Positions 1-30,034 of a stretch of 30,727 nucleotides of DNA are shown here, piece by piece (positions within the stretch are counted from its first letter, which is position 1; every line of letters begins with the position of its first letter). The notes under the pieces were generated by a model. That model searched no databases and was not told the DNA's origin. It saw only the letters and a list, made by a program, of their open reading frames with translations. This stretch comes from a virus, in UHGV virus genome UHGV-0157886. One strand, given 5' to 3'. Both the position numbers and the translations under genes were made by a program.

Positions 1-838
1 TCGTGTAACCATACTGATCTTTAAGATCTGCGGTAATCTCATCGTCTATGATGCTGAATTCTAATTTCCAGTTCAGCGGCCTACGCGTACCACTGACATG
101 CCTGGAAATATGAGACAGGTAGCTTTTTTTCCCTCCGGCCAAAATGTAACGCGAGGTTATTTCTGTCACTATGCCGACTGCAGCAGGAGTAACACGATAA
201 ACAGCCCCATTAATCCTGACAAAGTTTGAAATGGTTTTTATCTCATACCCGACAGACATGTCCAAGCGAGAGCTGTCATATTTGCCATTAGCGAGATCTG
301 TAACATACATTGCGTTGTCGATGTTATCAGGCCTAACTACCCCACTATATAAGTCTTGCACATATTTTTTTGTTACAGCATCCTGAGAGTTCTTCGGATC
401 GGCCAAATTGGAAATTCTGTTTTGCTTTGCATCGTAATATTTTGCAAGCAAAGATGGTTTCATCAATGCACGTCTGAACCACCCAAAACATCGCTGGATC
501 AGCATCGTCAGGTAGTCAAATGCATCTTCATGAACTTCGGGGAAAAATTTTCCCTGATTGCGAAGATCAGTCTCCTGCACCACATCAAGCACACGCTCTA
601 TCGTGATTCGCCAGCCAGCAGCAAGCGGCGACGGAAGAACCACTGCACCGCCACTATAAGTTCCCGCCCCTGTTACTGTATAACCAGCATCCAGCACTAG
701 TTCTGTTACGTTACCGTTAAGGTCAGACACCTGAACAACCAGGTCGGATTTTTTGAAAATACGGAAGGTATACGGAAATGATGTCGTAACGCCGTTACCT
801 GTGTATTCGTTGTGGTCAACTTCGGTTGAGACCGTCAT
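1..838 (-). CDS. Tail fibre / tailspike, N-terminal part only (ORF open to the left window edge); T7 gp17-like N-terminal particle-binding domain
   Basis: ATG at 838-836 preceded by GGAG (rc of 846-849). Reading frame is open for about 279 codons to position 1; the supplied ORF track lists no minus-strand ORF here, consistent with no stop before the edge. Translation starts MTVSTEVDHNEYTGNGVTTSFPYTFRIFKKSDLVVQV and contains RISNLADPKNSQDAVTKKYVQ, which matches the pattern of the T7 gp17 N-terminal domain as I remember it. Last gene of the virion operon. Confidence 0.65.
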   Translation of the reverse strand, partial: MTVSTEVDHNEYTGNGVTTSFPYTFRIFKKSDLVVQVSDLNGNVTELVLDAGYTVTGAGTYSGGAVVLPSPLAAGWRITIERVLDVVQETDLRNQGKFFPEVHEDAFDYLTMLIQRCFGWFRRALMKPSLLAKYYDAKQNRISNLADPKNSQDAVTKKYVQDLYSGVVRPDNIDNAMYVTDLANGKYDSSRLDMSVGYEIKTISNFVRINGAVYRVTPAAVGIVTEITSRYILAGGKKSYLSHISRHVSGTRRPLNWKLEFSIIDDEITADLKDQYGYT

Positions 839-1014: not shown

Positions 1015-1033
1015 ATTGCATGGAGAAGATAAG

Positions 1034-1291
1034 ATGCAGCAGTATCACTATCCACTGGAAGACGGATTTACCGAAAGGATCCACACGCCGGGAGGCGTCA
1101 GGTCACTGGTGGAGGGATCGCACTTGATGAAATTACTCCGGGATCTCGATAAGGATGGATTTAATGTCGATGGCCCACTTGCCGAACTGACTGCACTGAT
1201 TAACTACGTCACCAGCTCACAGATGTCTATGCGGGATCTGCAAACACATCTCGACTATTGTGCCGAACAATTACGAAAACAAACCACATAA
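1034..1291 (+). CDS. Small soluble protein (85 aa) under the LexA box; candidate SOS-induced antirepressor
   Basis: ATG at 1034 with GGAGA 8 nt upstream (the ORF-track start at 1016 is a TTG). Plus strand, convergent with the virion operon. Acidic/charged 85-aa product, no TM segment. Function is inferred from context only. Confidence 0.5.
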   Translation: MQQYHYPLEDGFTERIHTPGGVRSLVEGSHLMKLLRDLDKDGFNVDGPLAELTALINYVTSSQMSMRDLQTHLDYCAEQLRKQTT

Positions 1292-1314: not shown

Positions 1315-1326
1315 GTGACATGTCAC
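1315..1326. repeat. Perfect 12-bp palindrome GTGACATGTCAC, copy A
   Basis: Identical 12-mer also at 18528-18539 and 20793-20804. Overlaps the stop codon of the 98-aa membrane ORF. Confidence 0.8.
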
Positions 1327-17793: not shown

Positions 17794-17883
17794 ATCAATG
17801 ACTCCGTACGCAATTAAATTATTACCAATTTAACCACATATGATTTATTTATCGTAGATAGTTGACATTTAACGCACAAATTA

Positions 17884-18220: not shown

Positions 18221-18297
18221 GTGGCATTAGCTCAGTTGGACAGAGCAACCGCCTTCTAAGCGGTTGGTCGCAGGTTCGAATCCTGCATGCCACGCCA
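18221..18297 (+). tRNA. tRNA-Arg, anticodon UCU (reads AGA), CCA encoded
   Basis: Manual cloverleaf: acceptor GTGGCAT / ATGCCAC, D-arm GCTCAGTTGGACAGAGC, anticodon stem ACCGC / GCGGT with loop CTTCTAA, T-arm GCAGG-TTCGAATC-CTGC, discriminator G, CCA at 18295-18297. Confidence 0.85.
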
Positions 18298-18340
18298 GAA
18301 TCACGCCTAAGGACCGTGATGCCAGAAGTTCCAGGTGCTT

Positions 18341-18382
18341 GGCGGTGATGGTTTCCCTTGAAGGACTATCACCGCCCTTTTT
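18341..18382 (+). terminator. Intrinsic terminator downstream of the tRNA
   Basis: 9-bp stem GGCGGTGAT / ATCACCGCC followed by CTTTTT. Confidence 0.65.
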
Positions 18383-18460
18383 ACAGCAGGACGCCATTGC
18401 GATGACTTCATGCTGTAAACCAGTACAGCCACGGAAGGCATAACTCATTGCTTCCAGTTC

Positions 18461-18484
18461 GCCCGGTTCGCCGGGCATTTTTTT
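18461..18484 (+). terminator. Second intrinsic terminator (GCCCGG-TTCG-CCGGGC + T8)
   Basis: Perfect 6-bp GC stem with TTCG tetraloop followed by ATTTTTTT. Confidence 0.7.
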
Positions 18485-18527: not shown

Positions 18528-18539
18528 GTGACATGTCAC
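18528..18539. repeat. Perfect 12-bp palindrome GTGACATGTCAC, copy B
   Basis: Identical to copies at 1315-1326 and 20793-20804. Lies just downstream of the large terminase stop. Confidence 0.8.
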
Positions 18540-18613: not shown

Positions 18614-20089
18614 TTAAGCATAGGGATCGTAATCTGTAATGGCCTTGCCTTGCTGGTTCTGCTGACCGGGAATTCGCAGACGCTTCGACACCGGGAAAGC
18701 AAACGTCAGCAGTAGCGCATCGCCTTTACCCGGCGAACGCCCAAGCCGCTCCTTGATATCTTCCTTCGGTTCGATAACGATTTTACCGTCCACGCGAACT
18801 TTGTACTCTGCCGCCGACAGGTCGTCCGCTGTTTCCTGGTCATCCAGCATGCCGCCCAGCCTCAGCCATGTCTTGCATGCATTGAACATCTCCCCACGCT
18901 TGTTAAGCATCTGCGGGTCAGTGGACGCACCGCCGAACGGAACAAGTTGCCATGTACGTCCCCAGCCATCACCGATTGACTTCAAACCGGTTCCGTAACC
19001 GAAGTCGATGAACACCGCGTCAGCCTGGTACTGGTCTTCAAAGTCAGCGATACGCTTCGCCATAATCAGATCGTCGGTTGTCTTGTTGCCAGTCCATAGC
19101 ACCTTACTGTGCAGCCCCTGCCGCAGGTATATCACCGCGTCATCAACGCCTGAATATGCCGGGTCAACACCGATTATCACCGGAGCATGCGCCACCTGCG
19201 CAGCGGTTACCACCCGTTTCATTGCCTCATCAGTAAGACCGGTAGGGATAAACTGCAATTCAGATGCATCAGGGAATATGCCGCGCACACGGATTTTAAC
19301 GAAGTCGCTGTCTTCCCCGTAGTCATCAACCCATTTCTGCAACTGCTGTTTGTTAGTGCCTTCCACCGTCCGGCTGTCAATCTGCGCAGTTTTCCAGCGG
19401 TGTTTATATTTGCGGAAACATTCACGGAATCGCCCGGTATTACGCGTCGGGTTTCCGAACGCCACCCAGATAATCTCAGTGTCTTCGTCCGTTAGCGCAC
19501 CTTCGGCAACTTCCCACACCAGATCCGCAATATTCGACGCTTCATCGAATACCACGATGATGCGTTTGCGCTCGTTGTGTAGTCCGGCGAATGCCTCAGT
19601 GTTGTGCTCAGACCAGGGGATTGCGTCAGCTCGCCACCGCTTGTCGTGTCCAGGGTCATTGCTGTACATCGCGGTAGCTGTACAGGTAAACCAGTCTTTC
19701 GTGATAGCAAGGTTTGACCACTTGATAATTTCCGGCCAGGTCTTCGTTCGTAGCTGGTTGTCGGTGTTGGCGGTCACCACGACCTTACAATCCTCGCAAG
19801 TGGACATGCCCCAGTTGATCAGCATTGAGATGAATGCGGATTTACCAATACCGTGACCCGAAGCACGTGCCAGCATAAGCGGCTGATAGCGCGTCTCTGG
19901 ATTCTGCAGGTGATCACGTATCTCTCGGAACGCATCAGCCTGCCACTTACGTGGGCCGGTAGCATGTGCCAGTTCAGTCCCCTCTTCCCCCCACGGGAAC
20001 GCATAGAGGGCATAGCCAAGCGGATCGTGAGTGAACCCTGCAATATCCTCGATCAACTGCTCTTCAGGAGATAACGCTGTATCTGTCAC
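18614..20089 (-). CDS. Terminase large subunit (491 aa)
   Basis: Walker-A-like ARASGHGIGKSA near the N-terminus. Size, acidic nuclease-like C-terminal half, and position immediately after the small subunit with overlapping stop/start. Confidence 0.8.
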   Translation of the reverse strand: MTDTALSPEEQLIEDIAGFTHDPLGYALYAFPWGEEGTELAHATGPRKWQADAFREIRDHLQNPETRYQPLMLARASGHGIGKSAFISMLINWGMSTCEDCKVVVTANTDNQLRTKTWPEIIKWSNLAITKDWFTCTATAMYSNDPGHDKRWRADAIPWSEHNTEAFAGLHNERKRIIVVFDEASNIADLVWEVAEGALTDEDTEIIWVAFGNPTRNTGRFRECFRKYKHRWKTAQIDSRTVEGTNKQQLQKWVDDYGEDSDFVKIRVRGIFPDASELQFIPTGLTDEAMKRVVTAAQVAHAPVIIGVDPAYSGVDDAVIYLRQGLHSKVLWTGNKTTDDLIMAKRIADFEDQYQADAVFIDFGYGTGLKSIGDGWGRTWQLVPFGGASTDPQMLNKRGEMFNACKTWLRLGGMLDDQETADDLSAAEYKVRVDGKIVIEPKEDIKERLGRSPGKGDALLLTFAFPVSKRLRIPGQQNQQGKAITDYDPYA

Positions 20090-20682
20090 TGATTACCATC
20101 CTGACGTTCTTTGAGTCGCTTCCTGGCTGCTGCTATGCGATCAGCAATTGTCACATTCACATTAACATCCAGACGTTCTTTGAACGCGTTGACATCAACA
20201 TGCTTACCAATCAGCTCAAGGTTCTTCACCTTGTCAGGCCATTTAATTTTTTTGAGGATTGTCTCTATCGAATCCTCGTTCATGTTCATGATGGTCGATG
20301 ACAGATCAAAGCCACTAAGCGTAGTGCGCCAGATTTTCGGCCACTCACGGATTGGTTTAAGGCTCCCATCGTCGTTGAGGATGTCGATCACGTCCATCTG
20401 GTCGATCTCCACCAGGCGCATGAGAACGTAATCAGCACTGACGCGCATTCGTTTGTTGCGCTCCTCCATCAACTCGGCAATCCGTTTTTGAATGCGTTCA
20501 TCGCGCATCATGACGCTGGCTTTAACTGCCGCTGTATTTGGGGAGAATCCTGCGTTAATCGCTGCCTGAGTCTGGTTTTCAGGCGTTTTGATGTATGACT
20601 GGCAATAAGCCTCCTGCATTGCTGTTAGTGGCTTAAATTGCGTTGATTTGCGTTTATAGGTTTTAGGTTCAGCAGGCATCAT
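20086..20682 (-). CDS. Terminase small subunit (about 198 aa)
   Basis: Basic helical N-terminus, then oligomerisation-like region, directly upstream of and overlapping the large subunit. The ORF-track start at 20760 adds a Thr/Val-rich extension that overlaps the operator repeats and a terminator, so the ATG pair at 20682/20679 (MMPAEPK...) is preferred. Confidence 0.55.
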   Translation of the reverse strand: MMPAEPKTYKRKSTQFKPLTAMQEAYCQSYIKTPENQTQAAINAGFSPNTAAVKASVMMRDERIQKRIAELMEERNKRMRVSADYVLMRLVEIDQMDVIDILNDDGSLKPIREWPKIWRTTLSGFDLSSTIMNMNEDSIETILKKIKWPDKVKNLELIGKHVDVNAFKERLDVNVNVTIADRIAAARKRLKERQDGNQ

Positions 20683-20691
20683 AACCACCGT

Positions 20692-20721
20692 GGTAATAGT
20701 TACCGTTGTGGTAATAGTACC
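20692..20721. promoter_or_regulatory. Cluster of TTACC/GGTAA half-sites, including a perfect TTACC-N5-GGTAA at 20700-20714, immediately upstream of the small terminase start
   Basis: GGTAAtagTTACCgttgtGGTAAtagTACC: four alternating half-sites. Confidence 0.5.
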
Positions 20722-20723
20722 AT

Positions 20724-20751
20724 GCAAAATAAAGCCGCCATAGTTGGCGGC
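20724..20751 (-). terminator. Intrinsic terminator in the leader of the packaging operon
   Basis: Hairpin GCCGCC-loop-GGCGGC (20734-20751) followed on the minus transcript by UUUAUUUUG. Confidence 0.55.
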
Positions 20752-20792
20752 AGTATCCAAAACCCGTCAAATTCATCATGCATAATCTACTC

Positions 20793-20804
20793 GTGACATG
20801 TCAC
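20793..20804. repeat. Perfect 12-bp palindrome GTGACATGTCAC, copy C
   Basis: Identical to copies A and B. Overlaps the stop codon of the 115-aa ORF upstream of the packaging operon. Confidence 0.8.
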
Positions 20805-21148
20805 ACTATTAATTTCGTTTCATGCCAGCCTTTAGTCACCCAGCATTGCGAGTCACCATTACACGGGCATGAATTAACGGGAACTCTCTCGCCGCACTTA
20901 CCGCAAAGTTTTCTGCTGATCGATTTTATACGCCCGCGCACACGTGCATCATCCTGGCGGATCAGCAGCGCGATGTACTCGGCCATTTCATAGGGATCGC
21001 GACCAGGGCGCCGGGCGGCGCAGTTCCGCGCCAGCATTTCCTGCTCCTGCTTATCCAGCACCAGTTCAATTTTGCGCTCACCGGCGGCGGACTGCCGAGC
21101 GCGCTGCGCGGCTTTGCGTTCTGCGGGGGATTTAGCCACGAATCGCAC
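20801..21148 (-). CDS. Hypothetical protein (112-115 aa) with basic N-terminus and C-terminal Cys cluster (CGKCG...CPCNGDSQC; possible zinc ribbon)
   Basis: GTG start. A second GTG at 21139 has GGAG 8 nt upstream and is the more likely start. High-GC region with competing frames, so the call is tentative. Confidence 0.35.
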   Translation of the reverse strand: MRFVAKSPAERKAAQRARQSAAGERKIELVLDKQEQEMLARNCAARRPGRDPYEMAEYIALLIRQDDARVRGRIKSISRKLCGKCGERVPVNSCPCNGDSQCWVTKGWHETKLIV

Positions 21149-21254
21149 TCCACGCCAGATTGATTAATGACTCCCAGGCAATATAAACCCGGATACCAGC
21201 AGCCAGGCCGAAACCAATCACCATGGCATAAAGCAGAGCGTTGCACTTGTTCAT
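21132..21254 (-). CDS. Small hydrophobic peptide (40 aa, single TM); not in the ORF track
   Basis: ATG at 21254-21252 overlaps the DUF551 stop (TAATG) and has AGGAGGTG 6 nt upstream. Product MNKCNALLYAMVIGFGLAAGIRVYIAWESLINLAWSAIRG. Confidence 0.45.
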   Translation of the reverse strand: MNKCNALLYAMVIGFGLAAGIRVYIAWESLINLAWSAIRG

Positions 21255-23761: not shown

Positions 23762-23838
23762 TTACCTCTGAGGTAATTAAAAACCACATAAGACACGAAA
23801 TCAATAGATTTTAGAATATTTTATTACCTAACAGGTAA
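23762..23838. promoter_or_regulatory. Two perfect TTACC-N5-GGTAA sites (23762-23776 and 23824-23838) flanking an AACCACATA box (23782-23790) and a minus-strand TTGATT-N17-TTTAAT promoter-like element
   Basis: The proximal site overlaps the Shine-Dalgarno sequence (GAGG) of the DUF1064 gene. Confidence 0.5.
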
Positions 23839-23875
23839 TTGTCGAGGCGTAAAAAAATGCGCTATCGCGCTGGTA

Positions 23876-25751: not shown

Positions 25752-25766
25752 TTACCTTTGAGGTAC
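25752..25766. promoter_or_regulatory. Operator-like site TTACC-N5-GGTAC (one mismatch), site 4
   Basis: TTACCtttgaGGTAC, between the post-cro terminator and the replication operon. Confidence 0.4.
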
Positions 25767-26088: not shown

Positions 26089-26151
26089 TCACCTATAAGG
26101 TAACAAAAATCAAGGATAGTTACCCATGAGGTGCATTTACCTGTTGGGTAA
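26089..26151. promoter_or_regulatory. Immunity operator cluster: three 15-bp inverted repeats (26089-26103 TCACC-N5-GGTAA; 26120-26134 TTACC-N5-GGTGC; 26137-26151 TTACC-N5-GGTAA) between cro and cI
   Basis: OR1-3-like arrangement in the 154-bp divergent intergenic region. Half-site TTACC/GGTAA is shared with the sites elsewhere in the genome. Confidence 0.6.
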
Positions 26152-26206: not shown

Positions 26207-26791
26207 ATGAAAAGTATCCAGGACGTCCGCAGGCAAAATCTCAACGACTTGATCGACCGTGAATTCAATGGTGTTCAGACGCGGATGGCAGAAAAACTTG
26301 GAACTCAGGCAAATCTGGTAAACCGCTGGGCTCTTGGCAAGAAGGTTATCGGCGACCAGGTTGCACGAAAAATTGAAGCTGCCGCCAATAAACCACGTAA
26401 CTGGCTTGATATCGATCGCTCGCTTTCTCAGGAGGGTTTTCAGCCTGTCGGACCAAGCGACATTGGTCAGCTGGCGGCTCACAACCTGGAACGCTGGATG
26501 AGCGAAAGCCGCGACCTTTCAACACAGGGAAAACTTCACCGCGCATCCGGCGTAGCCCAGGTGACAATCAGCCGCCTGTTAAACAATGAGGTCAGCGTTT
26601 CCATTTCCACCCTGGAGAATGTTGCATCCGCATTCGGGCGTCACGGATATGAATTACTGATTCACCCGCACGACCCTGCGACTATCAACTATGACCGCTC
26701 GCGCTACGCATTGTTACCCGAAACCGAGAAAGCAAAGATCGAAAGTTACATTGAATTTGTCATCAACCAGAACGAAAAAAATAAACAATAA
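26207..26791 (+). CDS. CI-like repressor (194 aa) with two HTH-like segments and no S24 peptidase / autocleavage domain
   Basis: HTH_XRE-like segment QTRMAEKLGTQANLVNRWALGKKVIGDQVARKI and a second HTH-like segment ASGVAQVTISRLLNNEVSVSISTLENVASAFG. No Ala-Gly/Ser-Lys protease motifs. No Shine-Dalgarno sequence (possibly leaderless, like lambda cI from PRM). Confidence 0.55.
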   Translation: MKSIQDVRRQNLNDLIDREFNGVQTRMAEKLGTQANLVNRWALGKKVIGDQVARKIEAAANKPRNWLDIDRSLSQEGFQPVGPSDIGQLAAHNLERWMSESRDLSTQGKLHRASGVAQVTISRLLNNEVSVSISTLENVASAFGRHGYELLIHPHDPATINYDRSRYALLPETEKAKIESYIEFVINQNEKNKQ

Positions 26792-26812
26792 AACTATAGT
26801 TTTCAGCAAGTA

Positions 26813-26836
26813 AGCCGCCTCATGGCGGCTTTTTTA
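26813..26836 (+). terminator. Intrinsic terminator after the repressor gene
   Basis: Hairpin AGCCGCC-TCAT-GGCGGCT followed by TTTTTT. Confidence 0.7.
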
Positions 26837-26848
26837 TTGCCATCAAGA

Positions 26849-26925
26849 TTACCTTATGGGTAATTTTTTTAACTCATATCTATTGACATCAAACCAAATA
26901 CGCATAATCATTACCCCAACGGTAA
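26849..26925. promoter_or_regulatory. PL-like early-left promoter region: TTGACA -35 (26883-26888) flanked by two perfect TTACC-N5-GGTAA sites (26849-26863 and 26911-26925)
   Basis: Operator / -35 / AT-rich -10 region (CATAATCA) / operator arrangement directly upstream of the first early-left ORF. The -10 spacing is ambiguous. Confidence 0.5.
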
Positions 26926-29376: not shown

Positions 29377-29625
29377 ATGAAAGGTGCATTAGGTAAGAAG
29401 GAACTCCTGGCGGTGGTGCCACTGTCATGGAGCACTATCGACCGTATGGAGCGCGCAGGTGAATTTCCTAAACGCTGGTATATCACTGACAAACGCTGCG
29501 CATGGAACCGTGACGAAGTTGAGCGTTGGCTTGATGAACGTCAGGCAGCAAGCCCGGCAGAGTTCCAGGGTAAAAAACCTCCTGTTCAGCAACGTGTATA
29601 TCGTCCTGTGAGCAACGCGGCATGA
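29377..29625 (+). CDS. AlpA-family (MerR-like HTH, excisionase-like) phage regulatory protein
   Basis: LSWSTIDRMERAGEFPKRWYITDKRCAWNRDEVERWLDE matches the AlpA / Phage_AlpA pattern from memory. Size 82 aa. Confidence 0.55.
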   Translation: MKGALGKKELLAVVPLSWSTIDRMERAGEFPKRWYITDKRCAWNRDEVERWLDERQAASPAEFQGKKPPVQQRVYRPVSNAA

Positions 29626-29734: not shown

Positions 29735-30034
29735 GTGAGAAAGTTAAGCCGACTTGAAAAATATCACATGAACAAGGTTTCAATGCGCAGTCCGTCAAAG
29801 ATTGTCGCCGTTACTCCTGCGGCGATAGAGATCGAAAAACGCGCGATTGAAAGAGAGAAAAAAGGGCAGTTCCGCATTGCCGCTCACCTTTGGCTTCAGT
29901 GTATGGATGTTGCTTCTGGTGATGTTGAGCGTGCAAGGATCGCGGTTCGCAGGGACCAATGTATCACAAAAGGTAACGGCCTTCGCCGTGGAGACTATAG
30001 CGGTATAGGATGTTGCGGGGTGGTTTATGACTAA
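29735..30034 (+). CDS. PerC-family-like small transcriptional activator (99 aa)
   Basis: Pattern HLWLQCMDVA...ERARIAVRRDQC resembles the PerC/Pch W..M....ER....RR..C signature as I recall it. GTG start at 29735 or ATG at 29768. Confidence 0.4.
   Translation: MRKLSRLEKYHMNKVSMRSPSKIVAVTPAAIEIEKRAIEREKKGQFRIAAHLWLQCMDVASGDVERARIAVRRDQCITKGNGLRRGDYSGIGCCGVVYD

Follow-up and report, generated by a model that had tools for sequence, protein, structure and literature searches.

How does a temperate phage turn on its packaging genes when no Q-type antiterminator is encoded ahead of them? The question is raised by the UHGV virus genome UHGV-0157886, a stretch of 30,727 nucleotides (nt) analysed here at its full length and called the window, and in particular by the short leader of terS (20086..20682, minus strand; Terminase_2, Pfam PF03592, E = 1.1e-29), the first gene of its late or packaging operon. 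Judged by sequence and gene content, the window is a Uetakevirus, a temperate podovirus of the epsilon15/phiV10/SPC32H type. It is syntenic with these three phages in open reading frame (ORF) order and in Pfam and PHROG matches, its terS/terL region shares 97.8% DNA identity with phiV10, and the 4 kb around the terS leader match phiV10-like Escherichia phages at 94-98% identity and Salmonella phages of the epsilon15/SPN1S type at about 80%. The original prediction for this locus, made from the letters of the sequence, had described a distinct terS leader on the minus strand with a palindrome, an intrinsic terminator and a cluster of operator half-sites, and all of these elements were located where it had placed them. 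It had also taken the terminator to imply either regulated readthrough or re-initiation of transcription. We see an even chance that the terS-terL operon is an insulated unit with a promoter repressed directly by the prophage repressor Rep, and not a unit reached by Q-like readthrough.

The operators are the firmest part of this proposal. The predicted cluster of TTACC/GGTAA half-sites is present and resolves into two 15-bp operators, O1 (20700..20714; TTACCACAACGGTAA), which is a perfect TTACC-N5-GGTAA, and O2 (20682..20696; TTACCACGGTGGTTA), which has one mismatch and overlaps both the Shine-Dalgarno sequence GGTGG and the terS ATG (20682). The leftmost element of the cluster, GGTAC, does not belong to an operator; we rejected it as a fourth half-site since relatives carry GTTAC, GATAG or GATAC at this place. 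The half-sites of O1 are invariant in all leader variants aligned, while most lineages keep O2 with its single mismatch and some Klebsiella-type leaders have lost it. A search allowing up to one mismatch finds TTACC-N5-GGTAA 12 times in the window against an expectation of 0.41. The two leader sites share their sequence with the operators that flank the repressor gene, namely those between the repressor and the Cro-like gene (OR; 26089-26103 and 26137-26151) and those after the repressor gene (OL; 26849-26863 and 26911-26925), which flank the predicted promoter PL. The epsilon15 genome has 15 copies of the motif, several of them annotated as protein_bind 'repressor' in its GenBank record, and the homologue of O1 is among those annotated in this way (12..27; 20 nt before terS). 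Because the leader motif is identical to the OR and OL sites and carries this annotation in epsilon15, the half-site cluster is, by its sequence, the immunity operator.

The protein expected to bind O1 and O2 is Rep (26207..26791, plus strand), which matches the SPC32H repressor structure 5D50_A over its full length (E = 4e-42, residues 1-190). In SPC32H, Rep binds palindromic sites as a tetramer and the antirepressor Ant breaks this tetramer up (PMC9638917). An ant gene is also present in the window (1022..1291, plus strand), its product being 87% identical to SPC32H Ant, and a pattern match reveals a perfect LexA box, CTGTATAAATATACAG, upstream of it at 997-1012.

Immediately next to O1 lies a candidate promoter, here called P_terS. 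Its putative extended -10 element (20714..20722, minus strand) reads TGgTACTAT, and the last T of this element is the first T of O1. We aligned on O1 the 18 distinct leader variants obtained from more than 80 relatives. Positions -8 to 0 relative to O1 read T-G-n-T-A-n-T-A-T, with all seven specified bases invariant and three different bases at each of the two 'n' positions. This invariance extends to the leaders with inserted morons, where the sequence upstream is unrelated, and the relatives with a UmuD-like, LexA-box moron have lost the hairpin and kept both TGnTAnTAT and O1. The conserved block thus carries the candidate signature of an extended -10 element, TGn followed by TAnTAT, with the TG at -15/-14 and with -12T, -11A and -7T. 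The predicted PL (TTGACA-17-AATCAT, 10/12 match) shows the same overlap of -10 element and operator, TTGACA-17-AATCA[T]TACCCCAACGGTAA, in that the operator begins at the last base of the -10 in both cases. The two differ in that PL has a consensus -35 (TTGACA) and no TG, whereas P_terS has the TG and no -35. If P_terS is active, a start about 7 nt downstream of the -10 would fall inside O1, at about 20707, and the 5' untranslated region (UTR) counted from the start in O1 would be about 25 nt long and would contain GGTGG.

Several points weigh against such a promoter and its control by Rep. No recognisable -35 accompanies P_terS, the corresponding region being the 3' arm of the terminator hairpin, and the -10 hexamer TACTAT matches only four of six consensus positions. 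Taken alone, the pattern TGNTANTAT is expected to occur a few times by chance in 30 kb, hence the argument depends on conservation among relatives, for which an extended protein-binding site could account instead. The conserved Shine-Dalgarno GGTGG overlaps O2, and its conservation fails to discriminate between the models; moreover, the 5' UTR would be just about 25 nt if transcription started inside O1. All relatives found share one operator type, so that the sample offers no heteroimmune phage for comparison. Finally, the accessible literature holds no transcription-start, termination or binding data for this or related leaders, and the accessible papers on ZX5 and phiV10 are silent on late transcription.

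Two other promoter positions were considered and rejected. A PR'-like sequence, GTGACA-18-CATGAT (20804-20775, 9/12), lies in the spacer between palindrome and hairpin, which is a deletion scar and ranges from 23 to about 330 nt in relatives. A -10 directly downstream of O1, as at the internal early promoter P2 described below, would use an unconserved hexamer (CTATTA, CAATTA, TTATTA, TTATTT or TAAAAT).

The terminator lies directly upstream of the candidate promoter (20726..20751, minus strand) and consists of a hairpin (20751-20734) followed by the T-tract TTTATTTT (20733-20726). In the terminator scan the hairpin GCCGCCA-acta-TGGCGGC has seven pairs, six of them G-C, and a 4-nt loop; a 53-nt RNA containing it folds at -17.2 kcal/mol (z = -2.6 vs shuffles). 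A rho-independent terminator is annotated at the homologous place after gp49 in the epsilon15 GenBank record (39646..39672) and also in the phiV10 record. Most of 80 IMG/VR relatives keep the hairpin, and the class with the UmuD-like moron is without it; the same 80 loci offered no compensatory base changes for an analysis of covariation. A search of the leader against Rfam found no known RNA family, the sole match being to rseX and below threshold (E = 0.31). The predicted terminator probably ends transcripts of the early-right operon or of a moron, provided that the hairpin terminates efficiently. Elsewhere in the window, too, a terminator has a Rep operator within the next 15-40 nt. Behind the repressor gene cI the pair lies at 26812-26831 and 26849-26863, and behind the Cro-like gene at 25800-25781 and 25766-25752. 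The P-like gene is followed by a small GCGC hairpin with T7 (about 23850-23870), which the phiV10 record annotates as a terminator, and then by the operator 23824-23838 of P2.

Upstream of the hairpin the leader varies in length. The relatives compared, 80 from IMG/VR with 82-100% protein identity in the gene for a cysteine-rich (Cys-rich) protein that precedes the leader, together with several GenBank phages, were classed by the distance from the stop of this gene to terS. The distance is 101 nt in the epsilon15 type and 119 nt in the window. In the class of 305 nt an ORF of 70 amino acids (aa) is inserted between palindrome and hairpin, in that of about 400 nt there is an 85-aa ORF that brings along a sigma70 promoter of its own and a LexA box, and in that of about 451 nt a 109-aa UmuD-like ORF with promoter and LexA box and without the hairpin. 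Moron cargo in the relatives always sits between the palindrome and the hairpin. In the window this position is taken by a 41-nt spacer (20752..20792, minus strand), and since it matches gatgaatttgatggactttgaatact, the 3' end of the 70-aa ORF that fills the position in the 305-nt class, we regard the spacer as the scar of a deleted moron ORF. As this part of the leader is a slot for insertion and deletion, it holds no conserved PR'-like promoter. The slot can also be seen as a hot spot of moron insertion in its own right (loci L003, L004, L008, L017 and L090), in which the sigma70 promoters of the 85-aa and the 109-aa UmuD-like morons are each overlapped by their LexA box.

Put together, the terS leader would be an early/late junction built of four stacked modules. 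The last early-right gene, which encodes the Cys-rich protein, would end in the probable binding site of its own product, GTGACATGTCAC; the moron slot, reduced in the window to its 41-nt scar, would come next; the intrinsic terminator would then stop transcripts arriving from the Rep-controlled P2, or from a moron promoter where there is one; and a compact promoter-operator would follow right after the T-tract, with O2 covering the ribosome-binding site. In a lysogen, a non-cleavable Rep of the SPC32H type would occupy O1 and O2 and silence terS-terL. Upon SOS induction, LexA-controlled Ant would, if the analogy with SPC32H holds, inactivate Rep, leaving the late operon to initiate on its own. 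With operators and a candidate promoter placed after the terminator, and kept where the hairpin is missing, re-initiation is the simplest reading and an antiterminator is not needed. Of the two outcomes that the original prediction had left side by side, re-initiation is therefore favoured; regulated readthrough is unsupported, given the Rep operators and the persistence of TGnTAnTAT and O1 without a hairpin.

The distribution of the remaining operators suggests that this control may not be limited to terS. Besides OR and OL, copies are found after the terminator that follows the Cro-like gene (25752-25766), at P2 before the DUF1064 gene (23824-23838 and 23762-23776), before gp3/portal (17884) and before the tailspike gene (943-957). 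A further operator-like site with one mismatch (711-725) lies inside the tailspike reading frame and may be due to chance. The predicted P2 (23818..23845, minus strand; TCGACA-16-TAAAAT) has the operator 23824-23838 in its spacer and would drive the genes from DUF1064 through that of the Cys-rich protein; at the corresponding position in epsilon15 (35906..35922), a repressor site is marked in the record. The late units (terS, gp3/portal and tailspike) and the early units would thus each be switched directly by Rep, with no Q-type cascade. This suggests a flat regulatory design, in which a single repressor, itself controlled by an antirepressor, has operators in each of the early, packaging, head/tail and tailspike units. 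As a separate observation, a second LexA-type box (924-939) adjoins the Rep operator 943-957 in the tailspike leader, an adjacency which suggests that the tailspike unit may be under dual control by Rep and LexA.

Another repeated element, the exact 9-mer TATGTGGTT, is found on the minus strand at 903-911, 1282-1290, 17832-17840 and 23782-23790, and at 2990 and 24753 of locus L005. Copies lie some 30-40 nt downstream of Rep operators, in the leaders of tailspike, gp3 and P2 and in the lysis leader of epsilon15. In three late leaders it is followed by 7 nt and then a -10-like hexamer, and in the gp3 leader about 60 nt around it are identical in the window, epsilon15 and SPC32H. The 9-mer may be an element of late promoters or of 5' UTRs. 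Its distance from the -10-like hexamers is consistent with a fixed 7 nt, but we rejected it as the -35 of sigma70 late promoters for lack of a consistent -35 or 17-bp spacer.

The observations on the leader can also be read in other ways. In one of them the late operon lacks a dedicated promoter, and polymerases that started at P2 or PR would pass the hairpin by leakage or with the help of a factor, either the Cys-rich protein loaded at the upstream palindrome or an N-like function, and Rep would act as a roadblock in lysogens only. Such readthrough would account for the terminator between the last early gene and terS, and for a palindrome 41 nt upstream of it (23 nt in epsilon15), another copy of which lies 1 nt upstream of the terminator 1314-1297. 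It also agrees with the failure to find a canonical -35/-10 promoter between hairpin and terS, with a conserved Shine-Dalgarno, which implies an mRNA beginning upstream of it, and with the interruption of the T-tract, which is compatible with partial readthrough. The relatives with the UmuD-like moron nevertheless speak against it, since TGnTAnTAT and O1 persist there with no hairpin to be passed. The distance from palindrome to hairpin is not conserved either (23, 41, about 227 or about 330 nt), and the third copy of the palindrome stands after the terL hairpin and not before it. As for the factor, the searches returned no Q, N, Ogr/Delta or Mor family; ZF40, Chlobot and N15 each have a homologue of the Cys-rich protein alongside Q-like genes, and the homologue in a Yersinia P2-like phage ends the early (gpA) operon, far from the late genes. 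We consider readthrough unlikely as the way in which terS is reached.

A two-tier cascade, as in P2 with Ogr or Mu with C, seems to us less probable still. Here the weak promoter at TGnTAnTAT/O1 would require an early phage activator, for which the missing -35 could be taken as a sign. The early-left operon encodes candidates in a PerC-family transcriptional activator (29735-30034, plus strand; Pfam PF06069, E = 6e-7; PHROG 868) and an AlpA-like regulator or excisionase (29377-29625, plus strand), to which the Cys-rich protein may be added, and the block of TATGTGGTT, seven nucleotides and a -10-like hexamer shared by the gp3, tailspike and epsilon15 lysis leaders might be an activator site. 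The terS leader, however, is without TATGTGGTT, and no further conserved block is evident from hairpin to ATG besides operators, hairpin and TGnTAnTAT. In addition, extended -10 promoters can function without a -35 or an activator, and PerC-type proteins are known to regulate host virulence genes rather than phage late genes. The repeats might instead not be operators at all, but pac-type sites of the small terminase, comparable to pacL/pacR of SPP1 or to cosB before lambda Nu1. They do lie immediately upstream of terS, ACTATTACCAC forms direct repeats of 11 nt that are 18 nt apart, and the GenBank records of epsilon15 and SPC32H open right after the T-tract while that of BUCT711 ends inside O1. 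Against this stands the recurrence of the same 15-mer at OR, at OL and in no fewer than six further leaders, as well as its annotation as a repressor site in epsilon15; the record starts vary among phages, that of phiV10 being at the palindrome, and probably reflect convention. We judge a packaging signal to be very improbable. With regard to such ends, the linear record of the Klebsiella phage BUCT711 (L098/L099) both begins and ends inside O1 of its terS leader, between TTACCTAAAAG and GTAA, which could reflect an arbitrary break of the assembly or point to a packaging end close to the operator.

The Cys-rich protein, 112 aa long and a member of the epsilon15 gp49/phiV10 p55/N15 gp46 family, is encoded at 20801..21139 (minus strand) as the last gene of the early-right, 'nin-like' unit. 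As most homologues have 112 aa, its start is placed at the second GTG (21139), and a start at the first GTG, which gives 115 aa, probably overextends the ORF. A 40-aa hydrophobic ORF (21132..21254, minus strand; PHROG 5525, E = 7e-30) precedes it, and the TAA stop of this ORF overlaps the GTG start of the Cys-rich gene (GTGGCTAA), an arrangement that suggests translational coupling between the two. The protein matches PHROG 536, 'transcriptional regulator' (E = 1e-53), and no family in Pfam (E <= 0.01) or NCBIfam. At E <= 0.001 it has 728 homologue clusters, with 149 representatives at 50% clustering; among 120 listed homologues those names that are shown read 'hypothetical', 'uncharacterised' or 'phage protein'. 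An alignment of 54 sequences displays a basic N-terminus, a strand-helix-helix core, a long helix and a conserved CxxC...C...C cluster. The AlphaFold2 model has a pLDDT of 92.7. Matches of the protein to ribbon-helix-helix-like folds are only weak, with the Cys cluster following.

Two groups of proteins were considered as its relatives, the ribbon-helix-helix regulators (Arc/Mnt/CopG/ParD) and the DksA/TraR zinc-finger proteins. The C-terminal half is similar to TraR and YbiI, but weakly so (E 0.05-0.07; hhalign probability 57%), and its cysteines are arranged as C79-x2-C82...C92/94...C99 as compared with CxxC-N17-CxxC in DksA/TraR. A TraR/DksA-like identity was rejected on the grounds of these weak matches, the different Cys spacing and the absence of both proteins from the structural matches, and is at best remotely possible. 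The original prediction had suggested a comparison with the Q, Ogr/Delta and Mor/C families, and our searches gave no such match: Pfam returned none of these for the protein, and the 25 families listed at E <= 1 for the 54 homologues include neither Ogr/Delta nor Mor/C. Nor is it the only candidate regulator in reach, as had been supposed, given that Rep and the Cro-like, PerC-like and AlpA-like proteins are encoded in the window as well. Since its homologues in ZF40, Chlobot and N15 occur together with Q-like genes, the protein is no general replacement for Q; the gene of the Yersinia P2-like homologue stands last, behind gpA. The protein may act as an insulator or roadblock, as a modulator of termination or as a looping protein.

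What this protein may bind is suggested by the palindrome at the end of its own gene. The 12-nt GTGACATGTCAC (copy C, 20793..20804) overlaps the TGA stop of the Cys-rich gene. Two more copies are present in the window, copy B (18528..18539) just after the terL stop and a hairpin (18563-18544), and copy A (1315..1326), which overlaps the stop of a 98-aa ORF and abuts the terminator 1314-1297; the three matches to GTGACNNGTCAC compare with an expectation of 0.01. The equivalents in epsilon15 are at 2142-2153 for copy B and at 19517-19528 for copy A, the latter next to an annotated terminator (19531..19556). In Uetakeviruses, therefore, two copies stand just upstream of terminators at the ends of units and a third just after the terL hairpin. 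Among the 80 IMG/VR relatives and the GenBank phages, only a few truncated loci lack the palindrome after the stop of the Cys-rich gene.

The association of gene and site reaches beyond this genus. GTGAC-NN-GTCAC stands at or next to the gene stop in epsilon15, SPC32H, PAT1 and Klebsiella and Enterobacter relatives, and also in the Pectobacterium myovirus ZF40, whose gene is about 69% identical in DNA, the lambda-like siphovirus Chlobot, N15 (gp46, with a central TG) and the Yersinia P2-like phage (central GC). A clade with 45% identity has the motif at the gene stop in five of five loci, and one with 36% identity has it 138 nt downstream; one Vibrio phage examined (K308) has no such palindrome near the gene end. 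Against about 0.01 copies expected per genome, there are three each in the window, epsilon15, ZF40 and N15, four in BUCT711 and three in a 14-kb locus of the 36%-identity clade. Their positions are 5125, 7622 and 14944 in ZF40 (L009) and 28550, 33237 and 39269 in N15 (L097), one of the N15 copies being inside repA; a further copy is at 9933 of L096, and others occur in L100-L105. Fixed half-sites around a variable centre are what a dimeric DNA-binding protein would recognise, and GTGAC-NN-GTCAC is hence probably the binding site of the Cys-rich protein. It is a speculative and rather doubtful extension of this idea that the PHROG 536 protein and its sites form an uncharacterised regulator of operon junctions in several unrelated types of temperate phage, deciding whether polymerase stops or continues. 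If true, this regulator, bound at the stop codon of its own gene and at a few more unit ends, often just upstream of intrinsic terminators, would be part of a Q-independent switch from early to late transcription in Uetakeviruses. In any case, the predicted 12-bp site offers a handle on an uncharacterised 112-aa family present in hundreds of enterobacterial prophages.

The minus strand carries most genes of the window. Its order is headed by the Cro-like repressor (26052-25822) and continues with a DnaT/HTH initiator and a lambda-P-like protein, after which DUF1064, an Ead/Ea22-like protein, DUF551, the 40-aa peptide and the Cys-rich protein lead up to terS; terL (18614-20089), the portal gene and the rest follow. 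This is the order of Uetakeviruses, in which the early-right operon ends with a gp49-like gene directly before terS and the late genes run terS-terL-(moron/tRNA)-gp3-portal...tailspike. As the original prediction had it, the genes between replication and terS are accessory ORFs only, with no lysis cassette among them. It was also right about Q: searches of Pfam, PHROGs and NCBIfam found no Q or other antiterminator family among the ORFs tested, which covered the region from cro to terS and the early-left operon.

For the lysis genes it had offered two locations, and it is the one outside the window that fits. The holin/endolysin/spanin (Rz/Rz1) cassette comes after the tailspike gene and before attP/int in epsilon15, SPC32H, phiV10 and BUCT711, separated from the tailspike gene by O-antigen-modification genes in three of the four. 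In the window the tailspike gene starts on the minus strand, with its ATG at about 836, and is cut off by the left end, beyond which the cassette is consequently expected. The small proteins at 1323-1805, proposed as lysis candidates, matched no holin or endolysin family, and the relatives have a full holin/endolysin/Rz cassette elsewhere. For annotation, this makes the lack of a Q gene and of a lysis cassette here the normal state in the genus, and neither a gap nor a sign of an exotic mechanism.

The 'moron' region between terL and gp3 has features of its own. It contains a tRNA-Arg(UCU) gene on the opposite strand (18221-18297, plus strand), which SPC32H and ZX5 share, two plus-strand terminators nearby (18341-18376 and 18461-18476) and a LexA-box-like sequence, CTGTAAACCAGTACAG, at 18413-18428. 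An 83-aa ORF (18227-18478, minus strand) overlaps the tRNA gene and is probably spurious.

Among known systems, the terS leaders of epsilon15 (AY150271.2), phiV10 and SPC32H are the closest. They share with the window the gp49-family gene with GTGTGACATGTCAC at its stop, the hairpin GCCGCC(A/G)ACTATGGCGGC with its T-tract, TGnTACTAT and two copies of TTACC-N5-GGTAA before terS, and the relatives within the genus also have Rep, Ant, the tRNA-Arg moron and the location of the lysis cassette in common. The epsilon15 leader differs in having 23 nt between palindrome and hairpin in place of the 41 nt left by the lost moron, and its DNA is only about 78% identical. Both main elements of the leader are already in public annotation, the terminator in epsilon15 and phiV10 and, in epsilon15 alone, the repressor site. 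The reading as an extended -10 with PL-like operator geometry and the pairing of the PHROG 536 protein with GTGAC-N2-GTCAC appear to go beyond it, as the records retrieved for epsilon15, phiV10 and SPC32H annotate neither the former nor a link between the palindrome and the gp49 protein.

The switch itself resembles that of SPC32H, with which the window shares a Rep homologous over its full length, a closely similar Ant, a LexA box before ant and palindromic operators. In the window operators are also placed before terS, gp3/portal and tailspike, whereas the literature read on SPC32H deals with the structure and oligomeric state of Rep and Ant and does not say which promoters have operators. 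The late leader of lambda (PR'-qut-tR', with Q) is similar in that it too has an intrinsic terminator dividing the early region from the structural and packaging genes, and in that a small regulator-like gene is the last early gene. It differs from the window in several respects: the window has no detected Q-family protein and no lysis cassette after the leader, it has an insertion and deletion slot instead of a conserved promoter or pause element upstream of the terminator, and in some of its relatives the hairpin is dispensable. Moreover, its leader bears immunity operators directly, which that of lambda does not. The flat design suggested by these Rep operators would accordingly contrast with the regulatory cascade of lambda and P22.

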